Below are positions 5,902-21,266 of a stretch of DNA of 64,000 nucleotides, piece after piece. The position numbers and the translations under genes were made by a program. Below the pieces are notes generated by a model. It was not told the origin of the DNA and made no database searches. It worked only from the letters and a program-made list of their open reading frames with translations. This DNA comes from a virus, in the IMG/VR virus record IMGVR_UViG_3300038443_002312, positions 1-64,000 of that record; one strand, given 5' to 3'. How positions within the stretch are numbered: the first letter of the stretch is position 1; each line of letters opens with the position of its first letter.

Positions 5902-6627
5902 TCAGCCCCCGAACGGCATCCCCGGGCAGTTCGGCGGGGCGCTGGTGACCCGCCGGGTGGTCGCCGGCCCGGTCCCGCCGGCCGCCCCCGGGGCGAGCGG
6001 GCCCTGGGTGAAGGACGCGACGTCGGGCGGGCGGGCCGACTGCGGGGCGGCCGGCTCGGAGGACACCGGGACCGTGAGGGCCGGGGCCTCGTGCGACACG
6101 CCGACCGTCGAGGTCGACATGGGCGGCGGGTCCATCGCCTTGGCCCCGGCCCGCATCTCGCCCGCCCCGGCCAGGGCCTTCTCGGCCGCGGCCGGGCTGG
6201 ACCGGCCGAAGACGGTCGCGCCCGGGACGACGACGGCCCCGGCCCCGCCCGCCTCCTCCATCCCGCACCCCTTCAGGCTCATCCCGACGCACTTCCCGTC
6301 GGGCATGGCGTGGTGCTCGAACTTGACCGGGCTGACGCCCTTGACGGCCATCTGCTCGCCGTGCCCGTCGGCCGGGCGGCCGGCCCCGTGCGGCTCCAGC
6401 CCGGCCTCGGGCGTCCCGCCGGTCGCGTGGGCGTCGGGCCCGGCGGTCACCCCGCCCTCCCCGTGGTGGCTCCCGGTCGCGTGGCTGGCGTACGGCTCGG
6501 TCATGGCCTTCTCCCCGGCTTCCCGGTACGCCGCCGCGGCGGCCTGGTCGGCCGGATGGCCCGCCCGGACCATCTCGGCGATGTTGTGCGAAATCACCGC
6601 CCGGCTGCTCCCGCGTTCGAGCGGCAT
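5902..6627 (-). CDS. Hypothetical phage protein
   Basis: N-terminus MPLERGSSRAVISHNIAEMVRAGHPADQAAAAAY is a motif common in phage head-module proteins. Confidence 0.55.
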   Translation of the reverse strand: MPLERGSSRAVISHNIAEMVRAGHPADQAAAAAYREAGEKAMTEPYASHATGSHHGEGGVTAGPDAHATGGTPEAGLEPHGAGRPADGHGEQMAVKGVSPVKFEHHAMPDGKCVGMSLKGCGMEEAGGAGAVVVPGATVFGRSSPAAAEKALAGAGEMRAGAKAMDPPPMSTSTVGVSHEAPALTVPVSSEPAAPQSARPPDVASFTQGPLAPGAAGGTGPATTRRVTSAPPNCPGMPFGG

Positions 6628-6637
6628 CCCGTCGCCC

Positions 6638-7399
6638 TCAAGGAACCACCCCGTGGCACCCGCCCGGGGTCAGGCGCTTGTACTGGCCCAGGAGCCCGCG
6701 GACGTTCGAGAACAGGTACTCGCCGGAGAGCGTGGCCCCGAGGGCCCGGCCGTACGAGTACCCCTCCTCGCTCTCGCTGGTCGTCACCCCGAGGTTCGAC
6801 AGGTGCACGTACCAGATGCACGCCGCCTGGACGACCGCCAGTTGGACCGCCCCCGGGATCGTCTGGACGGCCGGGTCGTCGGACACCGTGTACCCGCCCG
6901 AGTACGTGACCTTGACCGTCCCCGGGGCCTGCTCCTTCGAGTACCTGATCAGGTCCTGCCGCCAGAACCGGGAGAACGGCCAGGTCTGCCCGGTCCGGTA
7001 CAGGAACCCGGTCGCGCTCCAGACCGGCGGCCCCTGGAGTTTGGGGTCGACCGCGTCCAGGGCGAGGTAGTAGTCCGCCCCCGGCTGCATGACCGTGGTC
7101 GACGGGCAGTCCGGGGTGAACGTCCCCGGGGTCTGCCCGAACCCGCCGGTCGGGTCGTACATCACCGACTGGACCGCCTCGACCGGGGTGAGCGACAGGA
7201 CCAGCCGGTCGTCGTCCCGCGGGCTGAACCACTCGGTGTACGCCGCCCGGTAGGTGAACGCCGGGCGGTTCAGCCAGCCGAGCATGGCCTGCTCGATCTG
7301 GGGGACCCAGACGGCCAGCCACGACGCGGGCGGGGTCGGGGTGCCGGTCGACACCCCGGTCAACAGCTGCGCGTCGGTGATCAGGGTCCCGATCGCCAT
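6638..7399 (-). CDS. Head-tail connector/adaptor protein (gp6-like)
   Basis: LVLSLTPVEAVQSV...VKVTYSGGY..IPGAVQLAV...SESEEGYSY..VRGLLGQYKR. Confidence 0.7.
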   Translation of the reverse strand: MAIGTLITDAQLLTGVSTGTPTPPASWLAVWVPQIEQAMLGWLNRPAFTYRAAYTEWFSPRDDDRLVLSLTPVEAVQSVMYDPTGGFGQTPGTFTPDCPSTTVMQPGADYYLALDAVDPKLQGPPVWSATGFLYRTGQTWPFSRFWRQDLIRYSKEQAPGTVKVTYSGGYTVSDDPAVQTIPGAVQLAVVQAACIWYVHLSNLGVTTSESEEGYSYGRALGATLSGEYLFSNVRGLLGQYKRLTPGGCHGVVP

Positions 7400-7400
7400 G

Positions 7401-7643
7401 TCAGCCCGTGTCCCCGGCGACCATGCGCCTGACCCCGATCGTCCCGAAATTCCGCTTGGTCTCGGCGTTGAGCAGGCGGTTGACCGACCGCCGGGCCTTC
7501 CGCTCGTTCGGGGTCGTCGCCCGGCCCCCGCGGGTCGCCCGCTCCAGGGCCCCGGCCGACCCCATCCCGGAGTACCGGGCGGCGTTCCGCCGGGCCGTCT
7601 GGTAGGCCGGTGTCTCCGCCGGTTTCTTCGGCCGCCTGGCCAT
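7401..7643 (-). CDS. Small basic hypothetical protein
   Basis: 80-aa Arg-rich ORF with RBS. Confidence 0.5.
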   Translation of the reverse strand: MARRPKKPAETPAYQTARRNAARYSGMGSAGALERATRGGRATTPNERKARRSVNRLLNAETKRNFGTIGVRRMVAGDTG

Positions 7644-7808
7644 CGCCCGCCCTCCCGGTTAGCCCCCCGCCCGTGGACAACGCCCCGCCGGAGATTCTTG
7701 CCCGACCCTCCCCTCACGGTCCCACGGCCCTCACGGGTCTAGGGGTTGGGGAGACTCGACGCCCGGCGGGGCGTGTGGTCCGCCAGTCCGCTGGCCGCCC
7801 GGCCCGCC

Positions 7809-15068: not shown

Positions 15069-16367
15069 TCACTCCTCCTCGTCGGCGAAGACGACCACAC
15101 ACCCCATCTCCTCCAGCTTGTACCGGAGGCTCTGCCGGAACTGGGTCCAATTCCACGGGTGCCCGGCCAGGCACCCGACCGGCGGCCCGCCGTTGAAACT
15201 GCGGGTCGGCAGGGCGGCCACGCGGACGATCCCGCACCGCCACTGCCGCGCCCGGTCGGCGATCCGCCGGGTCCAGGCGTGGTTCCGGGCCTTCTGCCCC
15301 TCCTCGCGCTGGGCCGTGGCCCGGGCCAGGGTGGCCTGGTTGACCGCCCACCCCTTGCCGAACCCCCACGGCCGCCGCGGGCTCCCGCAGTCGCCGCGCC
15401 GCCGCTCCAGGGCCGCCCGGCGGTTGGCCGCGTAGGCCAGGAAGGCCCGGACGTCGGCCGCCCCGAGCGTGTCGGCCGTCTCCGCCCCGTCCGGCCCGGC
15501 CAGCCCGAAGAGGGGCAGGTCGGCCGACGGGTCGCGCCGGCCCTCCGGGACCAGGTCGGTCGCCCCGTCCCGCGGGGTGACCACGAGGGTCCGGGCCGGG
15601 TCCAGGTCCGCGGCCGACCGCGGTCGCTCGTGCGACACGGTGGCGAACAGCTTGCCGTCGACCTCGGACAGGAAGACCGTGCCGAGCTTCCACCCGTCGG
15701 CCCCGTCCCGCAGGGCCTGCCACACCCGCCACCGCCCGCCGTCGAGGTTCTGGGTCAGTTGGAAGGCGACCTCGCCGATGTCCCGGTCCCAGCGCAGGAC
15801 CAGGGCCCGCTTGTCGAGCCGGGGCTTGGCCGTGGCGACCGGGAGGCCGATCCCGCGGCGGTTGAACTGGGCCAGCCCGCGGGCCCCCTGGAGGACCAGC
15901 CAGCCGCGGGTCGCCTGCGGGAACTCCGGGTCCCGGGCCTGCCACGCGGTCTGGAGGTCCCGGCGGGCGCTGTCGTTGACGAACGCGAGCATGGTCGGCA
16001 ACTGGCGGGCGACCTCGGCCCGCAGTTCGTACACCGGGCCCCGCGGGATCTTGACCTGGTAGACCTCGCCGTCGCCGCGCTTGCGCTCCTCGGGGACCAC
16101 GACCTCCGCCGTCGCCTGCCCGTGGGCCAGGGCGGCCAAGACTTTGGCGTTGTTGTTGCTCGGGGTCACCCGGCACTCGTCCCCGGTCCAGGTGATCTCG
16201 GCCCCGGCCGCCCGGGACTCGGCCATCAGCCCGTAGCAGTGCCGCAGGCACGCCCGGTAGGCCCGGACCGACGCCACCACCCGCTTGCGGTCCTCGGCCC
16301 GGTCGGCCGGCATCGCCAGATCGACCCGGAGCGACCGCTGGACGCCTTTCGCCTCTGCTGCCGCCAT
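15069..16367 (-). CDS. Nuclease-dead, C-terminally truncated TnpB/Cas12f-like RNA-guided DNA-binding protein (432 aa)
   Basis: DGKLFATVSHERP..DLDPARTLVVT (RuvC-I position, no Asp); RNHAWTRRIADRARQWRCGIVRVAALP (RuvC-II, Glu replaced by Ala); WNWTQFRQSLRYKLEEMGCVVVFAD; no Zn finger or RuvC-III. GGAG RBS before ATG 16367. Confidence 0.7.
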   Translation of the reverse strand: MAAAEAKGVQRSLRVDLAMPADRAEDRKRVVASVRAYRACLRHCYGLMAESRAAGAEITWTGDECRVTPSNNNAKVLAALAHGQATAEVVVPEERKRGDGEVYQVKIPRGPVYELRAEVARQLPTMLAFVNDSARRDLQTAWQARDPEFPQATRGWLVLQGARGLAQFNRRGIGLPVATAKPRLDKRALVLRWDRDIGEVAFQLTQNLDGGRWRVWQALRDGADGWKLGTVFLSEVDGKLFATVSHERPRSAADLDPARTLVVTPRDGATDLVPEGRRDPSADLPLFGLAGPDGAETADTLGAADVRAFLAYAANRRAALERRRGDCGSPRRPWGFGKGWAVNQATLARATAQREEGQKARNHAWTRRIADRARQWRCGIVRVAALPTRSFNGGPPVGCLAGHPWNWTQFRQSLRYKLEEMGCVVVFADEEE

Positions 16368-16395
16368 GCCGGAACTCCGTGTGCCCCATGACAAG

Positions 16396-16743
16396 CCGTC
16401 ACCCGCGACCGGTTGCCACCCGCATCCCCTCACCCCGCATCCGCCGCCGGAATAGCCCTTCACCCGCGACCTGCCACAGGTCGGTTCCCGTCACCCGCGG
16501 CATCTCCCGCCGATGTTCCCGTCACCCGCAGTTCAGATTGAGCCATCACCCGCTGGCCCGACTGTTCGTCCCCCGATGCTCACCCGTCACCCGCTGGCGA
16601 CCGCTGGGCACACCCCGTCACCCACTGTTCCGAACCTTGCCGTCACCCGCGGCCGGCCATTCCGGGTTACCATCACCCGAGACACCCGAGAGCCAACCGT
16701 CACCCGCGGGCCGGGCACGCCACCCGGATGGGACCCTCGCCCG
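16396..16743 (-). CRISPR. Mini-repeat array A (~12 units, repeat ~(C)GCGGGTGACGG)
   Basis: Repeat starts near 16396, 16427, 16457, 16488, 16519, 16543, 16584, 16615, 16640, 16670, 16697, 16734; period mostly 24-31 nt; unique spacers. Confidence 0.7.
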
Positions 16744-16883: not shown

Positions 16884-17272
16884 GGGGCCGGGGACGATTC
16901 TGCCAGAGTGTTGTCAGGGGTGGCGAGCCAGGCGGCCAGGGTGGCGGCCGACAGGCCGACCGGGTAGACGTCCTCGGGCCGCGCGGCCGGGGCGCGGGAG
17001 ACCTGGAGGGCGTGCCGAACCCCGCGGTCGGACACTTTGGCGTCGGGAACGGAGCGGCCGTTCCCGCCGACGACCCGGGCCGCCCGCTCGCAGAACAGGG
17101 GGTCGAGCCCGGGCTCCGGGCCCGGCCGGTTGTGCGGGGCCTTGCGGGCCCACCGCCGCCAGGCGGCGGCCCGGCGGACGGCCCGCCAGTAGCGGGCACT
17201 GAGTTTCCGGAGCAGGCAGAACGTCGCGTAGTCGACGGGGTGGTAGCCCCAGCGGGACTGGTAGGTGGTCAC
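16880..17272 (-). CDS. Hypothetical protein
   Basis: VTTYQSRWGYHPVDYATFCLLRKL...; GGAG RBS. Confidence 0.55.
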   Translation of the reverse strand: MTTYQSRWGYHPVDYATFCLLRKLSARYWRAVRRAAAWRRWARKAPHNRPGPEPGLDPLFCERAARVVGGNGRSVPDAKVSDRGVRHALQVSRAPAARPEDVYPVGLSAATLAAWLATPDNTLAESSPAP

Positions 17273-17304
17273 TTTTGAGCACTCCCGAGTAGCGGAAACG
17301 AACG

Positions 17305-17343
17305 AAAAAAGCCGCGGGCCCGCCCGGCGACGGGGCCCGCGGC
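17305..17343 (-). terminator. Rho-independent terminator
   Basis: 11-bp stem GCCGCGGGCCC/GGGCCCGCGGC followed by T6 on the minus strand. Confidence 0.8.
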
Positions 17344-17649
17344 CACGGCGGTCAGTTCCCCGCCCCGGTCCTCCTCGCGGAACTCCTCCACGGGCAGGCC
17401 GGCGGCGGTCAGGCGGGCCCGGGCGGCGGCCAGGGCGGCCTCGTCGGGGACGGCGAGCAGGACGAGATGGGGGTGGGGGAGGAAGGCGAGGGGCCGGGAA
17501 CGAACCGCCTCGATGGCGGCGTGGCACGCCTGAACGGCAGGCTGGGCCCCGGGCAGATCGGCGCGGACGAGGACGTACAGGTAGGACGGCCGGCGGGGCT
17601 CAGACGGGCCGGCGCATTCACGTAAACCCGGACATGGGAACCTCCTCAG

Positions 17650-17733: not shown

Positions 17734-17910
17734 AACCGGGGGCAGGGGTCGAACCTGCGACCACGGCTTACAAGGCCGCCGCTCTTGCCGGTCGGGCGGG
17801 CGGTTTACACGGGGCCGCGCTAGCTCGGCCGTCCCCCGCCTGCCCCGTCGGCCCCGGGACCGTCCGCTTGTACCTGCGGCGCAGTTACCGGCCTTCTGAG
17901 CTACCCCGGC
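17734..17910 (-). tRNA. tRNA-Thr(UGU) with ~100-nt insertion in the D-loop
   Basis: GCCGGGG-TA-GCTC-[113-nt D-loop]-GAGC-G-GCGGC-CTTGTAA-GCCGT-GGTC-GCAGG-TTCGACC-CCTGC-CCCCGGT. Confidence 0.7.
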
Positions 17911-17913
17911 ACG

Positions 17914-17940
17914 AAAAAAGGGCGGCCCGAGCCCGCCCCG
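17914..17940 (-). terminator. Terminator-like hairpin plus U-tract directly 5' of the interrupted tRNA-Thr
   Basis: GGGCGG-GCTCGGG-CCGCCC-TTTTTT on the minus strand. Confidence 0.6.
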
Positions 17941-18097
17941 CACACTCTGTCACCGAACCGCACATGGAGGGAGTCGTTCGGATGGAGGAAGTCACTTGCG
18001 ATCCGGGGTGTCCGCCGACGGTTCCCGGCTTGGTCTGCCGGTCGCCTGAAGCGGACGTCACGCCACCTTGGGTTGTACGGTTGCCAGTGAGATCGAA

Positions 18098-18264
18098 TAC
18101 CCGGCGGGGGAGTCGAACCGCCCATCTCCGGCTTAGCCGCCGGTGTCCTCCCAGGGATTGACGGGTGCAGGCGGTACTCGGTCGGGCGTCGTTGGGTGAC
18201 CTGCCACTTACCGACACCGACCGCACCTGCCGTCTCGCCCCTGCCTCCGCTGAACGAGCCGGGC
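18098..18264 (-). tRNA. tRNA-like gene with large D-loop insertion and aberrant 6-nt anticodon loop (GGCUAA)
   Basis: Acceptor GCCCGGC/GCCGGGT, D-stem GTTC/GGAC enclosing ~100 nt, CCGGC/GCCGG stem, GGTTCGACT T-loop. Confidence 0.55.
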
Positions 18265-18330
18265 TTGTTTAGGTCCGGGGCGACGAAAGAGGTGTCGCCC
18301 ATTCACCCGGAGATCCCCGCCCCGGACCAG

Positions 18331-18400
18331 ACGCCCCACCGGGACTCGAACCCGGACCTGCCCCTTTGATAGGGCCGTGCTGCCATCGCACCCTGGGACG
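18331..18400 (-). tRNA. tRNA-like gene with non-canonical anticodon arm
   Basis: Acceptor CGTCCCA/TGGGGCG, D-arm GTGC/GCAC, T-arm CCGGG-TTCGAGT-CCCGG; anticodon arm GCCCT-ATCAAA-GGGGC is 1 nt short. Confidence 0.6.
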
Positions 18401-18485
18401 AAAACCCCGGCATCCTCTTCCGGGGCGCCGGGCCGCGGGGAAGCCCCGACCTCTCAAGGAAGGGCCCGCGGCGACCGACTCCCTA

Positions 18486-19258: not shown

Positions 19259-20272
19259 TCAACGCCGGACCGGCGGGAGGCCGGCCCACTCGCGGCCGAG
19301 CGCGACCAGGGCGGCCGACAGGGCGAGTTCCGCGGCCGCCCGGGACGGGTAGTCGCGGGTGGTCGGCCCCCGGCCGCCGCGGCGGCCGGCGACGTGGCCG
19401 CCCTCCAGGCGGGCGAAGACGGCCGGGGGCAGTTCCCACGGCAGGGAGTCGGCGGCGTCCGACTCCCGCCAGAAGTAGTGGTGCCCGTCGCGCACGATGC
19501 CGCCGGGGATCAGGTCGCCCGGGTCGGCCGGGCGGGCGTGCTGCGGCTCGACGGACTCGACCGGGCAGACGCGGAACACCGCCGCGAGCCCGGCCCCGGT
19601 CGACCCGCGGCCCTTGCAGGCGTAGCACGGCGGGTCCGGGTCCGGCCGGCCCGAGAATAACCGCCCGGTCCCGGCGCACAGCCCGCACACCCAGCCCCAG
19701 AGGTCACTGCCGGGCAGCGACAGGCGGCCGACGAACCCGCGGACGAACGTCGCCCCGGCCCGGGCCCGCTGGCTCACCCGGGCGGCCGGGATGCGGGCGC
19801 TCAGTTCGGCCCGCAGCCACCGGGCCTGGTACCGGGCCAGGATGGTGCTCACCCGGCCCTCCAGTTCGTCCTGCCGGCGGTCGTTCGCCTCGCTCGCCGG
19901 GTACCTCCCCCGCCGCTGGTCGGCGATCTCGACCTGGACGCGGATGAACTCGGCCCGGGCGCGGAATTCGGCGGCGTGCGTCCCCTCCCCGCCGCAGTCC
20001 GGGCAGACCATCGTCGCCGGGCCGGCGAACGACCCCCGCCCGCGGCAGGCCGGGCAGGCCCGCGACGACATCGGGGTCAGGGCGACCCGCCGGCTCCCGC
20101 GGCACCTCTCGCAGGTCCAATTCGTCCGCCCGCCGGCAACGCGGCCGTGGCCGGCGCACGCCTGGCAGGTCGCCCCGGCGGCGTGATCGTCCAGCCAGTC
20201 GGCCGCCTGGAGGCGGGGCAGGTCGTCGGCCGGGTCGGCCAGGATCGCGGCCAGCGCTTCGGGCGGGATCAC
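19259..20272 (-). CDS. TIGR02996-domain protein with DnaJ-like CxxCxGxG zinc-binding repeats
   Basis: LAAILADPADDLPRLQAADWLDDH...RAEFIRVQ; six CxxCxGxG-type motifs. Confidence 0.75.
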   Translation of the reverse strand: MIPPEALAAILADPADDLPRLQAADWLDDHAAGATCQACAGHGRVAGGRTNWTCERCRGSRRVALTPMSSRACPACRGRGSFAGPATMVCPDCGGEGTHAAEFRARAEFIRVQVEIADQRRGRYPASEANDRRQDELEGRVSTILARYQARWLRAELSARIPAARVSQRARAGATFVRGFVGRLSLPGSDLWGWVCGLCAGTGRLFSGRPDPDPPCYACKGRGSTGAGLAAVFRVCPVESVEPQHARPADPGDLIPGGIVRDGHHYFWRESDAADSLPWELPPAVFARLEGGHVAGRRGGRGPTTRDYPSRAAAELALSAALVALGREWAGLPPVRR

Positions 20273-20493
20273 GGGCGGGCCTCCAGTCGCTTCCGGGTGT
20301 CGGCCGTGTGCAGCCCGTACTCGTTTGCACACCGCAGGCACGCCTTGACCACCCACCACATCCCGGACCGGTTGACGTCGTGCCACGGCGGGCAGGCCGC
20401 GTACAGGTACCGGTCGCCCGGGCGGATGGCGTGGTAGGACTGCTCGGTGCACCGGTGCTCTTTGCGGGCCGTCCGGATCGTCGGGGCGCTCAC
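20269..20493 (-). CDS. Small Cys-containing hypothetical protein
   Basis: RTARKEHRC..IRPGDRY..CLRC, a common phage small-protein pattern. Confidence 0.55.
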   Translation of the reverse strand: MSAPTIRTARKEHRCTEQSYHAIRPGDRYLYAACPPWHDVNRSGMWWVVKACLRCANEYGLHTADTRKRLEARP

Positions 20494-21266
20494 GGCCGGG
20501 CCTCCCCGGCGGCAACCGCGTGGGCCTTCTGCATACACCGGACCAGCTCCCGGACCCGGGTGGCCCACAGGATGACGACGTCGGCCGGCGGGTGGGCGGA
20601 CTCGCGGAGGGCCCAGATCGCCTCGGCGTCGGCCAGCCACCCGAGGCGGAAATCGCCCAGCCCGATCTCCTCCAGCGCGGCCCGCAACTGGGCCCGGTCG
20701 GCGTCCAGCCGGTCGAGCAGCCAGGCGGCGTTCTCGGCCGTCGTCCGGTTGTCCCACTCGTGCCCGGGGCAGTCGACGACGGCGCCTCCCCACCGGGCGA
20801 CGGCCTCGCCGTACGTTTGCGGGACGGCCGCGGTGAACCGGGCGAGGTCGGCGGCCAGTTTGTCCCGCTCGATCTGAAGATAGACGTTCCCCGTGGCCAC
20901 CCGCATGGTGACGGCGTCGTCGGCCTTGGCCTTCTCGCTCACGTCGTGGATCGACCACTTGCCCGAGGTCTCCATGACGGCGAACCCGGCGTCCCGGATC
21001 GCCCGCCGCAGGTGGTCCCGCTCGGCCTCCAGGTCCGCGTAGGTCGGCCAGTGCCCGCCCTCGCACCGCCGGTCGATGAACCGCTCGCAGTTCCGGAGCA
21101 TGGCGAGCTTGTCCCCGACCCGCCGGTCGCACTTGATGCCGTCGCCCAGGGCGGCGTACAGCCGGTCGTCGTCAAGGTGGCAGCGATCATCCGCCCGCTG
21201 CGACCGGTGTTCTCGTATGGCTGCTTCAAGTACCGCCACCCGGGCGGTGAGTTGGTCGCTATCCAC
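20490..21266 (-). CDS. Hypothetical protein
   Basis: AAIREHRSQRADDRCHLDDDRLY...MLRNCERFI. Confidence 0.6.
   Translation of the reverse strand: MDSDQLTARVAVLEAAIREHRSQRADDRCHLDDDRLYAALGDGIKCDRRVGDKLAMLRNCERFIDRRCEGGHWPTYADLEAERDHLRRAIRDAGFAVMETSGKWSIHDVSEKAKADDAVTMRVATGNVYLQIERDKLAADLARFTAAVPQTYGEAVARWGGAVVDCPGHEWDNRTTAENAAWLLDRLDADRAQLRAALEEIGLGDFRLGWLADAEAIWALRESAHPPADVVILWATRVRELVRCMQKAHAVAAGEARP

Follow-up and report, generated by a model that had tools for sequence, protein, structure and literature searches.

Two phage tRNA-like genes with helix-closed D-loop inserts of 92–104 nucleotides, an extreme member of a recurrent class of extra-armed phage tRNAs

INTRODUCTION

Few shapes in biology vary as little as the four-armed cloverleaf of transfer RNA (tRNA) with its D-loop of 7–11 nucleotides (nt), and gene-finding programs take it for granted. 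Length differences among natural tRNAs occur in the variable pocket of the D-loop, the bases of which point to the solvent. Here, we describe two tRNA-like genes, a tRNA-Thr(UGU) gene and a second gene called gene B, in which the D-loop is enlarged by an insert of 92–104 nt that is closed by a helix of its own; the inserts are referred to as the Thr arm and arm B. Both genes lie on a stretch of 64,000 nt (the window, meaning the whole stretch of DNA that was analyzed), which is the first 64 kb of a single IMG/VR virus record of 115,673 base pairs (bp) (IMGVR_UViG_3300038443_002312).

The nearest published objects are rnaC (species 1 RNA) and rnaD of phage T4, late stable RNAs of unknown function that are encoded in the T4 tRNA cluster and were confirmed by Northern analysis (PMC9697503). 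Like the genes described here, rnaC combines a tRNA-type T arm (CCGGG-UUCGAAU-CCCGG) and a stem resembling the acceptor with a large internal arm at the place where the D arm would be. It differs in that the D stem is lost, the acceptor contains mismatches and sequence similarity is absent, whereas the Thr gene has all parts of a tRNA and an arm in addition. Class II tRNAs (Leu, Ser and bacterial Tyr), tRNA-Sec and allo-tRNAs also possess an extra helical arm, which the translation machinery tolerates; however, this arm is located between the anticodon and T arms rather than in the D-loop and comprises at most about 25 nt. The replacement of a short loop by an extended, lineage-variable stem-loop is shared with the intervening sequences in helices 25 and 45 of 23S ribosomal RNA (rRNA), which bacteria remove by RNase III cleavage without re-ligation. 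These reside in rRNA, and we know of nothing comparable documented for tRNA. In Archaea and in some eukaryotic nucleomorphs, introns are known to occur in the D-loop (PMC3241643, PMC3978253). As in the genes described here, the D-loop or D-arm is interrupted and removal of the interruption restores a standard tRNA, but these introns need a bulge-helix-bulge motif and a splicing endonuclease, neither of which was found in the present case. No published description of D-loop arms was found in the literature searched.

TWO tRNA-LIKE GENES WITH INSERTS AT THE SAME D-LOOP POSITION

The two genes and their arms have the following positions in the window:

17734..17910, minus strand: tRNA-Thr(UGU) gene with a 113-nt D-loop, recognized by four stems, a CUUGUAA loop, ARAGORN after insert removal and a partial Rfam match
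17788..17891, minus strand: Thr arm, a 104-nt insert between G19 and C20, with closing helix CCGGU/ACCGG and a predicted three-way junction
18098..18264, minus strand: tRNA-like gene B with a 103-nt D-loop, a scanner match that ARAGORN reports as tRNA-??? after insert deletion
18152..18243, minus strand: arm B, an insert of about 92 nt, predicted as a long imperfect hairpin with closing helix CAGGG(G)/(C)CCCUG

An earlier inspection of the letters alone, here called the sequence-only reading, had proposed that the Thr gene possesses canonical acceptor, anticodon and T arms together with a D stem that encloses 113 nt, and this anatomy was borne out. The acceptor stem GCCGGGG/CCCCGGU contains a G1-U72 pair, the D stem is GCUC/GAGC, the anticodon arm is GCGGC-CUUGUAA-GCCGU and the T arm is GCAGG-UUCGACC-CCUGC. 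The D-loop consists of AGAAGG, the 104-nt insert and CAA, and the closing helix extends to the GCCGGU/ACCGGC that had been read (GCCGGT/ACCGGC in the DNA) if G19 and C20 pair too. Outside the insert the gene is intact, including U8, A14, G15-C48, G18G19, A21, the T-loop UUCGA, U33, A37 and all stems, and its anticodon loop is canonical with 7 nt, U33 and a purine at position 37. In the predicted fold, the Thr arm is built on a GC core of 9–10 bp extended by bulged helices; it is branched and its helices are shorter than that of arm B.

Gene B carries, as the sequence-only reading had held, an insert of similar size at the same D-loop position, closed by CAGGG/CCCTG. Its acceptor stem is GCCCGGC/GCCGGGU and its D stem GUUC/GGAC encloses 103 nt, which are composed of AGCGGAGG, the insert of about 92 nt (CAGGG...CCCUG) and GGA. 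The insert thus follows GG, and three loop bases ending in A remain before the D stem. In place of a canonical 7-nt anticodon loop, gene B has the hexaloop GGCUAA. Arm B folds into an imperfect duplex of roughly 35 bp with a minimum free energy of −45.8 kcal/mol and a z-score of −3.22, one of 200 shuffled sequences being equally stable. The two inserts are unrelated in sequence, and neither has another copy in the record. A search for antisense targets of the arms returned chance-level matches only, and gene B was rejected as protein-coding sequence, the third-position GC content of its 133-codon frame (18302-17901) being 0.74 compared to 0.85–0.96 in real genes.

Neither gene was found by ARAGORN in the unmodified sequence. 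After deletion of the inserts, a check that the sequence-only reading had suggested, ARAGORN called tRNA-Thr(UGU) for the Thr gene and a tRNA-??? with a 6-nt loop for gene B. The Rfam tRNA model matched the Thr gene with 27.9 bits over model positions 10–63 only, which misses the gathering threshold of 29 bits, and it did not match gene B. The stems of both genes correspond to those of a canonical elongator tRNA (RF00005), with one T-stem mismatch in gene B, and it is their D-loops of 113 and 103 nt that exceed the canonical 7–11 nt. A cloverleaf scanner that demands perfect acceptor, D and anticodon stems of 7, 4 and 5 bp, a T arm and a D-loop of 20–300 nt was run over both strands of the 115,673-bp record and gave exactly two matches, the Thr gene and gene B; 40 composition-preserving shuffles yielded no match. 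Three calls of a tRNA-Arg with intron that were made elsewhere in the record by the intron mode of ARAGORN were not supported by this scanner. That two unrelated inserts occupy the same site in one cluster of four genes makes an accident unlikely.

A WIDER CLASS OF D-LOOP-ARMED PHAGE tRNA-LIKE GENES

The two genes are not isolated. IMG/VR was scanned with a pattern for tRNA genes with 30–60 extra bases between A14-G15 and A21, and 110 matches were obtained in which acceptor pairing was bimodal: 7 of 7 pairs were kept in 32 matches and 6 of 7 in 20, so that 52 of the 110 keep 6–7 pairs, and the rest kept 0–5. Since the pattern fixes A14-G15 and A21, the restriction of the inserts to the D-loop is partly built into the search. 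After removal of partial (5′-fragment) duplications, at least 25 distinct phage tRNA-like genes with a D-loop hairpin were retained (loci L060-L170), which ARAGORN misses. Examples are:

L073, 2152-2259: armed tRNA-like gene
L077, 1173-1272: armed tRNA-like gene
L075, 4723-4830, minus strand: armed tRNA-like gene

The hairpin is positioned before G18G19 in L060, L062 and L074 and after G18G19 in L073, L075, L077 and L164. Some of the armed genes possess ordinary anticodon loops (GUU, UUC, UUU and GCG), while in L074, L075 and L105 a UNCG or GNRA cap takes the place of the anticodon loop; L081 has a hexaloop, GACUAA, that closely resembles that of gene B (GGCUAA). Homology exists between the arms of L129 and L145, and a palindromic loop motif, UGAUCAG, is common to the arms of L064, L109, L130 and L164. 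The hairpins of the class comprise 7–12 bp, which is too short for RNase III, and therefore the arm must stay in those genes. In L074, a phage contig of 416 kb, three paralogous tRNA mimics are located at 6442-6769 and 7382-7696. They share one acceptor stem, their anticodon arms are capped by tetraloops, and one of them has a D-loop arm; the three are placed about 600 nt upstream of a PTH2-like gene with an ordinary start.

The Thr gene and gene B share with these genes a helix-closed insert in the D-loop pocket with A14, G18G19 and A21 kept. The D stem, T arm and acceptor are likewise kept in the wider class, which contains members with a decoding-type anticodon loop next to members with a capped one. 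The two genes differ in the size of the arms, which is 18–60 nt in the wider class and 92–104 nt here, in the lack of sequence similarity and in the three-way junction of the Thr arm; conservation is shown for some families of the class (for example L129 and L145). The largest D-loop in the 2.7 Mb of these loci measures 56 nt, and the Thr arm and arm B are the largest case of extra-armed phage tRNAs found in this analysis. An IMG/VR scan for Thr(UGU) genes with a D-loop of 95–125 nt returned 30 matches, all of which are tandem tRNA pairs. A general 60–90-nt scan also returned tandem pairs and no true case among the matches listed, so large arms may exist elsewhere. In 267 Gemmatales genomes, the D-loop-arm pattern matched twice, both times in a 5′-fragment duplication. 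The Thr gene and gene B are real, non-random and unannotated, and they stand at the extreme of a class of phage tRNAs with extra arms that occurs repeatedly.

THE tRNA CLUSTER AND A LEADER THAT MAY NEED RECODING

The sequence-only reading had presented two tRNA genes. Both are real, but they are members of a cluster of four with a gene at 18400-18330 (gene A) and one at 17722-17649 (gene D). All tRNA-like genes of the cluster are on the minus strand in the order A, B, spacer, Thr, D. The B-Thr spacer of 187 nt ends in a hairpin plus U6; as a structured RNA it was rejected (z-score +0.59). The features of the cluster and its surroundings are:

18330..18400, minus strand: tRNA-like gene A, tRNA-??? 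in ARAGORN, with the 6-nt anticodon loop AUCAAA
17649..17722, minus strand: tRNA-like gene D with the 8-nt anticodon loop A-CU-UCA-AA, found by ARAGORN and by Rfam (tRNA, 45.9 bits)
17912..17939, minus strand: terminator-like hairpin plus U6 from a terminator scan, ending 3 nt before the Thr gene
18401..18425, minus strand: hairpin CCCCGG-N9-CCGGGG plus U4, read from the sequence directly 5′ of gene A
17618..17635, minus strand: leader minigene, read from the sequence as GGAGG, 5 nt, ATG TCC GGG TTT ACG TGA
17269..17616, minus strand: PTH2-like peptidyl-tRNA hydrolase frame, recognized by Pfam PF01981 (23.7 bits) and homologues

Gene A has a well-formed tRNA body, and its loop contains UCA and would comprise 8 nt if the closing U-G pair were open. 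In gene D, one base is inserted on the 5′ side of the anticodon loop as compared to the Rfam tRNA model, which we take to be the build of classical +1 frameshift suppressors. Downstream of gene D, the GGAGG forms a strong ribosome-binding site of the Shine-Dalgarno type for the leader minigene of six codons, which is the only one of its kind in the record that precedes a long coding frame without a start codon of its own: the PTH2-like frame is in +1 relative to the leader and contains no ATG, GTG or TTG for 75 codons, and it stays open if the four bases UGA-A are read as one step. The same leader plan, consisting of a start, one to six codons and an in-frame stop, is present in 11 IMG/VR loci and 17 Gemmatales genomes. 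These leaders have 2–7 codons and often end in Phe-Thr or Phe-Ala (L001, L003, L004, L006, L008-L012, L014, L018, L019; L314-L330); one Gemmatales leader reads M-G-F-T-TAG, compared to M-S-G-F-T-TGA in this phage. The stop of the leader matches the anticodon of a suppressor tRNA encoded within about 1 kb, the combination being TAG with tRNA-CUA nearly everywhere and TGA with tRNA-UCA in L012. The synthesis of PTH2 in genomes that contain this leader module seems to depend on a suppressor tRNA.

Gene D together with the UGA-A leader is a candidate for a natural quadruplet, or +1, suppressor tRNA with its target. Such a match of an odd tRNA to an odd leader speaks for selection acting on the cluster, and the UCA-loop neighbor and the PTH2 gene that would need a +1 step at UGA-A suggest that the four-gene cluster is functional. 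Genome-wide stop-codon reassignment was ruled out, as all three stops end confident genes (TGA 79, TAA 20 and TAG 17) and no other gene needs a shift.

Upstream of the cluster, a gene on the minus strand (19259-20515) encodes a DnaJ-type zinc finger and matches Q-like antiterminators weakly; almost no relatives of it were found in a homologue search. A GC hairpin with a U run lies 0–3 nt before genes A and Thr, the one in front of gene A having scored under the threshold of the terminator scan. In lambdoid late operons, tRNA genes are located behind a Q-dependent terminator, and the layout observed here recalls this arrangement. Downstream, a frame of 464 amino acids (15069-16463, minus strand) gave no Pfam or PHROGs match at E 0.01.

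SOURCE OF THE RECORD AND PROBABLE HOST

The record is linear, about 71% complete according to CheckV and has a G+C content of about 75%; besides the Q-like match, it encodes a phage portal protein and a sigma-70-type factor. It is a contig of an uncultured high-GC phage, the host of which is probably a planctomycete of the Gemmatales (Planctomycetota), because portal relatives, a host-like tRNA and the best matches of the PTH2-like protein all point to this order. Portal relatives show 46–58% identity; one of them, recovered as L292, stems according to its annotation from a Gemmataceae genome bin, and a further one is contained in a Schlesneria bin. The 3′ part of the Thr gene, from the anticodon to the T arm, is 85% identical to a Gemmataceae tRNA(CAU) gene that shares the unusual G1-U72 pair (L304, G025:C91:16232-19283, position 1481-1553). 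The phage gene may have been derived from such a tRNA(CAU) by two anticodon changes, and its charging identity is therefore uncertain. The best matches of the PTH2-like protein (E 1e-34 to 1e-46) occur in 17 of 267 Gemmatales genomes.

Single-protein portal searches of GenBank phages, IMG/VR, JGI metagenomes and GTDB genomes retrieved nothing close. The best portal relatives are 56–58% identical, one of them on a 67-kb contig, and the portal alignment led to the contig of a Gemmataceae metagenome-assembled genome and to distant viral contigs, none of which covers a tRNA cluster. Codons that are scarce in the phage include ACA, ACT, TTA and AGA, with 5, 10, 4 and 3 occurrences among 14,218 sampled codons.

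PROPOSED BUILT-IN ARMS AND COMPETING EXPLANATIONS

We tentatively favor, with slightly less than even confidence, the reading that the inserts are built-in structured arms kept on tRNA-derived RNAs and are not introns. It is preferred because the inserts repeatedly occupy an exposed site, the core of the Thr gene is intact, a class with shorter arms exists, intron signatures are absent and the context looks live; the sequence-only reading had named a tRNA mimic or extra arm as one of its options, and this option fits better in view of the variable pocket after G18G19, the kept tertiary nucleotides of the Thr gene and the at least 25 IMG/VR analogues. Several observations weigh on the other side. 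Homologues that could lend either arm support from covariation or conservation are not known, and the Thr arm, with a minimum free energy of −53.9 kcal/mol and a z-score of −0.41, is no more stable than shuffled sequences. At 92–104 nt, the arms are about twice the size of the next-largest case (56 nt), and an arm of 100 nt might get in the way of RNase P or the ribosome at the elbow. ACA is nearly unused by the phage (5 of the 14,218 sampled codons), and therefore codon supply does not explain a Thr(UGU) gene. Gene B shows a C-C mismatch in the T stem, a G15-G48 clash and two G-U pairs in the D stem, and its insert is flanked on both sides by the 5-nt direct repeat GGAGG. Moreover, as the record is only about 71% complete, a processing enzyme encoded by the phage could have been missed.

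Removal of the arms would lead to a different picture. Cleavage by host RNase III without rejoining, as in the intervening sequences of bacterial 23S rRNA, would leave a tRNA in two pieces that stay joined by pairing in the acceptor, in the D stem and in what remains of the arm. In favor of this are the stable imperfect duplex of arm B (~35 bp, z-score −3.22) and the 9–10-bp GC core of the Thr arm, and an RNA ligase for rejoining was not found in the phage record. An excised sequence of this type would be expected to have a double-stranded stem of about two helical turns, and to this arm B corresponds with its long hairpin, the Thr arm being branched with shorter helices. We nevertheless regard trimming as unlikely: the Thr arm forms a three-way junction and not a single long duplex, this enzyme would need more than the smaller arms of the class offer in length and no natural tRNA with a nicked D-loop is known to us. 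Precise excision with re-ligation, either by self-splicing or by a host nuclease plus RtcB, would yield tRNAs of 73–75 nt and require introns of an unknown small type. Deletion of the insert indeed restores a textbook tRNA-Thr, the closing helix brings the two junctions together and D-loop introns exist in Archaea and some nucleomorphs, as cited above. The unusual introns considered in the sequence-only reading nonetheless found no support. A covariance-model search of 17734-18264 against Rfam, the library of which covers group I and group II introns and small self-cleaving ribozymes, returned, with E-values of up to 10 allowed, the tRNA model besides matches at the level of chance and no family for either insert, and 92–104 nt is below the usual size of group I introns. 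A bulge-helix-bulge motif (two 3-nt bulges and a 4-bp helix) was absent by inspection, the closing helices of 5–6 bp being unbulged and directly abutting single-stranded D-loop residues. In domain searches of the incomplete record, neither RtcB nor an RNA ligase, RNase III, tRNA splicing endonuclease, CCA-adding enzyme or class IIa synthetase domain was detected, and the splicing endonuclease family PF01974 had no match in the record or in 61 genomes of the Gemmataceae, the probable host family, while controls were positive in four archaea. True introns are thus considered very improbable.

That the genes are dead or dying, hit by unrelated insertions whose end helices are inverted repeats of mobile or slippage DNA and giving rise to no functional product, is to be taken somewhat less seriously than trimming by RNase III but more so than splicing. 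The defects of gene B (hexaloop, T-stem mismatch and G15-G48) together with its GGAGG repeat, which resembles a target-site duplication, fit decay after insertion, and the lack of excess stability in the Thr arm, the near absence of ACA codons and the lack of known homologues are in line with it. In contrast, the Thr gene has no defect outside its insert, which is without a flanking direct repeat, and the coincidence of two unrelated inserts at the same loop position of a four-gene cluster speaks against decay, as do the absence of a second copy of either insert in the record, which would be expected of a mobile element, the otherwise dense coding of the phage and the apparent match of the neighboring gene D to a recoding site. 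A tRNA body could also serve as a mere scaffold that provides sites for RNase P and 3′ processing, stability and CCA, the arms being the working regulatory or protein-binding RNAs; tRNA-scaffolded small RNAs were among the options of the sequence-only reading. Engineered tRNA scaffolds reportedly stabilize inserted RNAs, as described by Ponchon and Dardel; different cargoes would be expected to be unrelated in sequence, as the arms are, and the body of gene B seems unable to decode. However, neither arm shows a complementarity of at least 11 nt to the local transcript or a significant match to the rest of the record, and the body of the Thr gene is fully competent for decoding, which a mere scaffold would not need. 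This explanation is judged improbable, ranking between decay and splicing.

If built-in arms are assumed, the inserts may be compared to expansion segments. We infer that the genes would be transcribed together with their neighbors from the side of the late operon, downstream of the Q-like gene and through leaky hairpin-U signals, and that the RNAs would be excised by host RNase P and 3′ processing enzymes and receive CCA from the host, because no CCA is encoded. Each RNA would then fold into the L shape, with the arm leaving the D-loop at the solvent-exposed pocket just after G18G19. The Thr RNA keeps all that is needed for charging and decoding, and hence it probably still works as a tRNA, reading ACG and ACA. 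Gene B, judged by its hexaloop and weakened core, appears to be either a tRNA mimic that does not decode or a copy in decay. The arm would most likely act as a handle or shield, either by binding a phage or host factor or by deterring host nucleases that are directed against tRNA.

A link of the Thr tRNA to the ACG codon directly before UGA-A in the leader is speculation. In the strongest form of this idea, which we consider far-fetched and the least probable of all proposals discussed here, both armed RNAs would be mature, uncut components of a phage recoding kit, in which the armed tRNA-Thr and the tRNA with the 8-nt UCA loop would form a two-tRNA device for quadruplet decoding of the PTH2 leader. 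The armed tRNA-Thr would sit on the ACG in the P-site before UGA-A, its arm would hinder release factor 2, and the tRNA with the 8-nt UCA loop would then read four bases and open the PTH2 frame. Such a device, if true, would mean that the ribosome can use a tRNA that bears an extra arm of 100 nt.

CONCLUSION

The Thr gene, gene B and dozens of smaller cases suggest that phages routinely build extra arms into the D-loop of tRNAs. Standard annotation misses such genes, as ARAGORN and the Rfam gathering threshold each found neither of the two. With its 8-nt UCA loop, UGA-A leader and PTH2 frame, the cluster furthermore lends itself to direct tests of stop-codon and four-base decoding in nature. 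Arms that are retained would set a new upper limit on what RNase P, the CCA-adding enzyme, the synthetase and perhaps the ribosome tolerate, and they would hint at a so far unrecognized level of regulation, or of conflict between phage and host, that is centered on the shape of tRNA.

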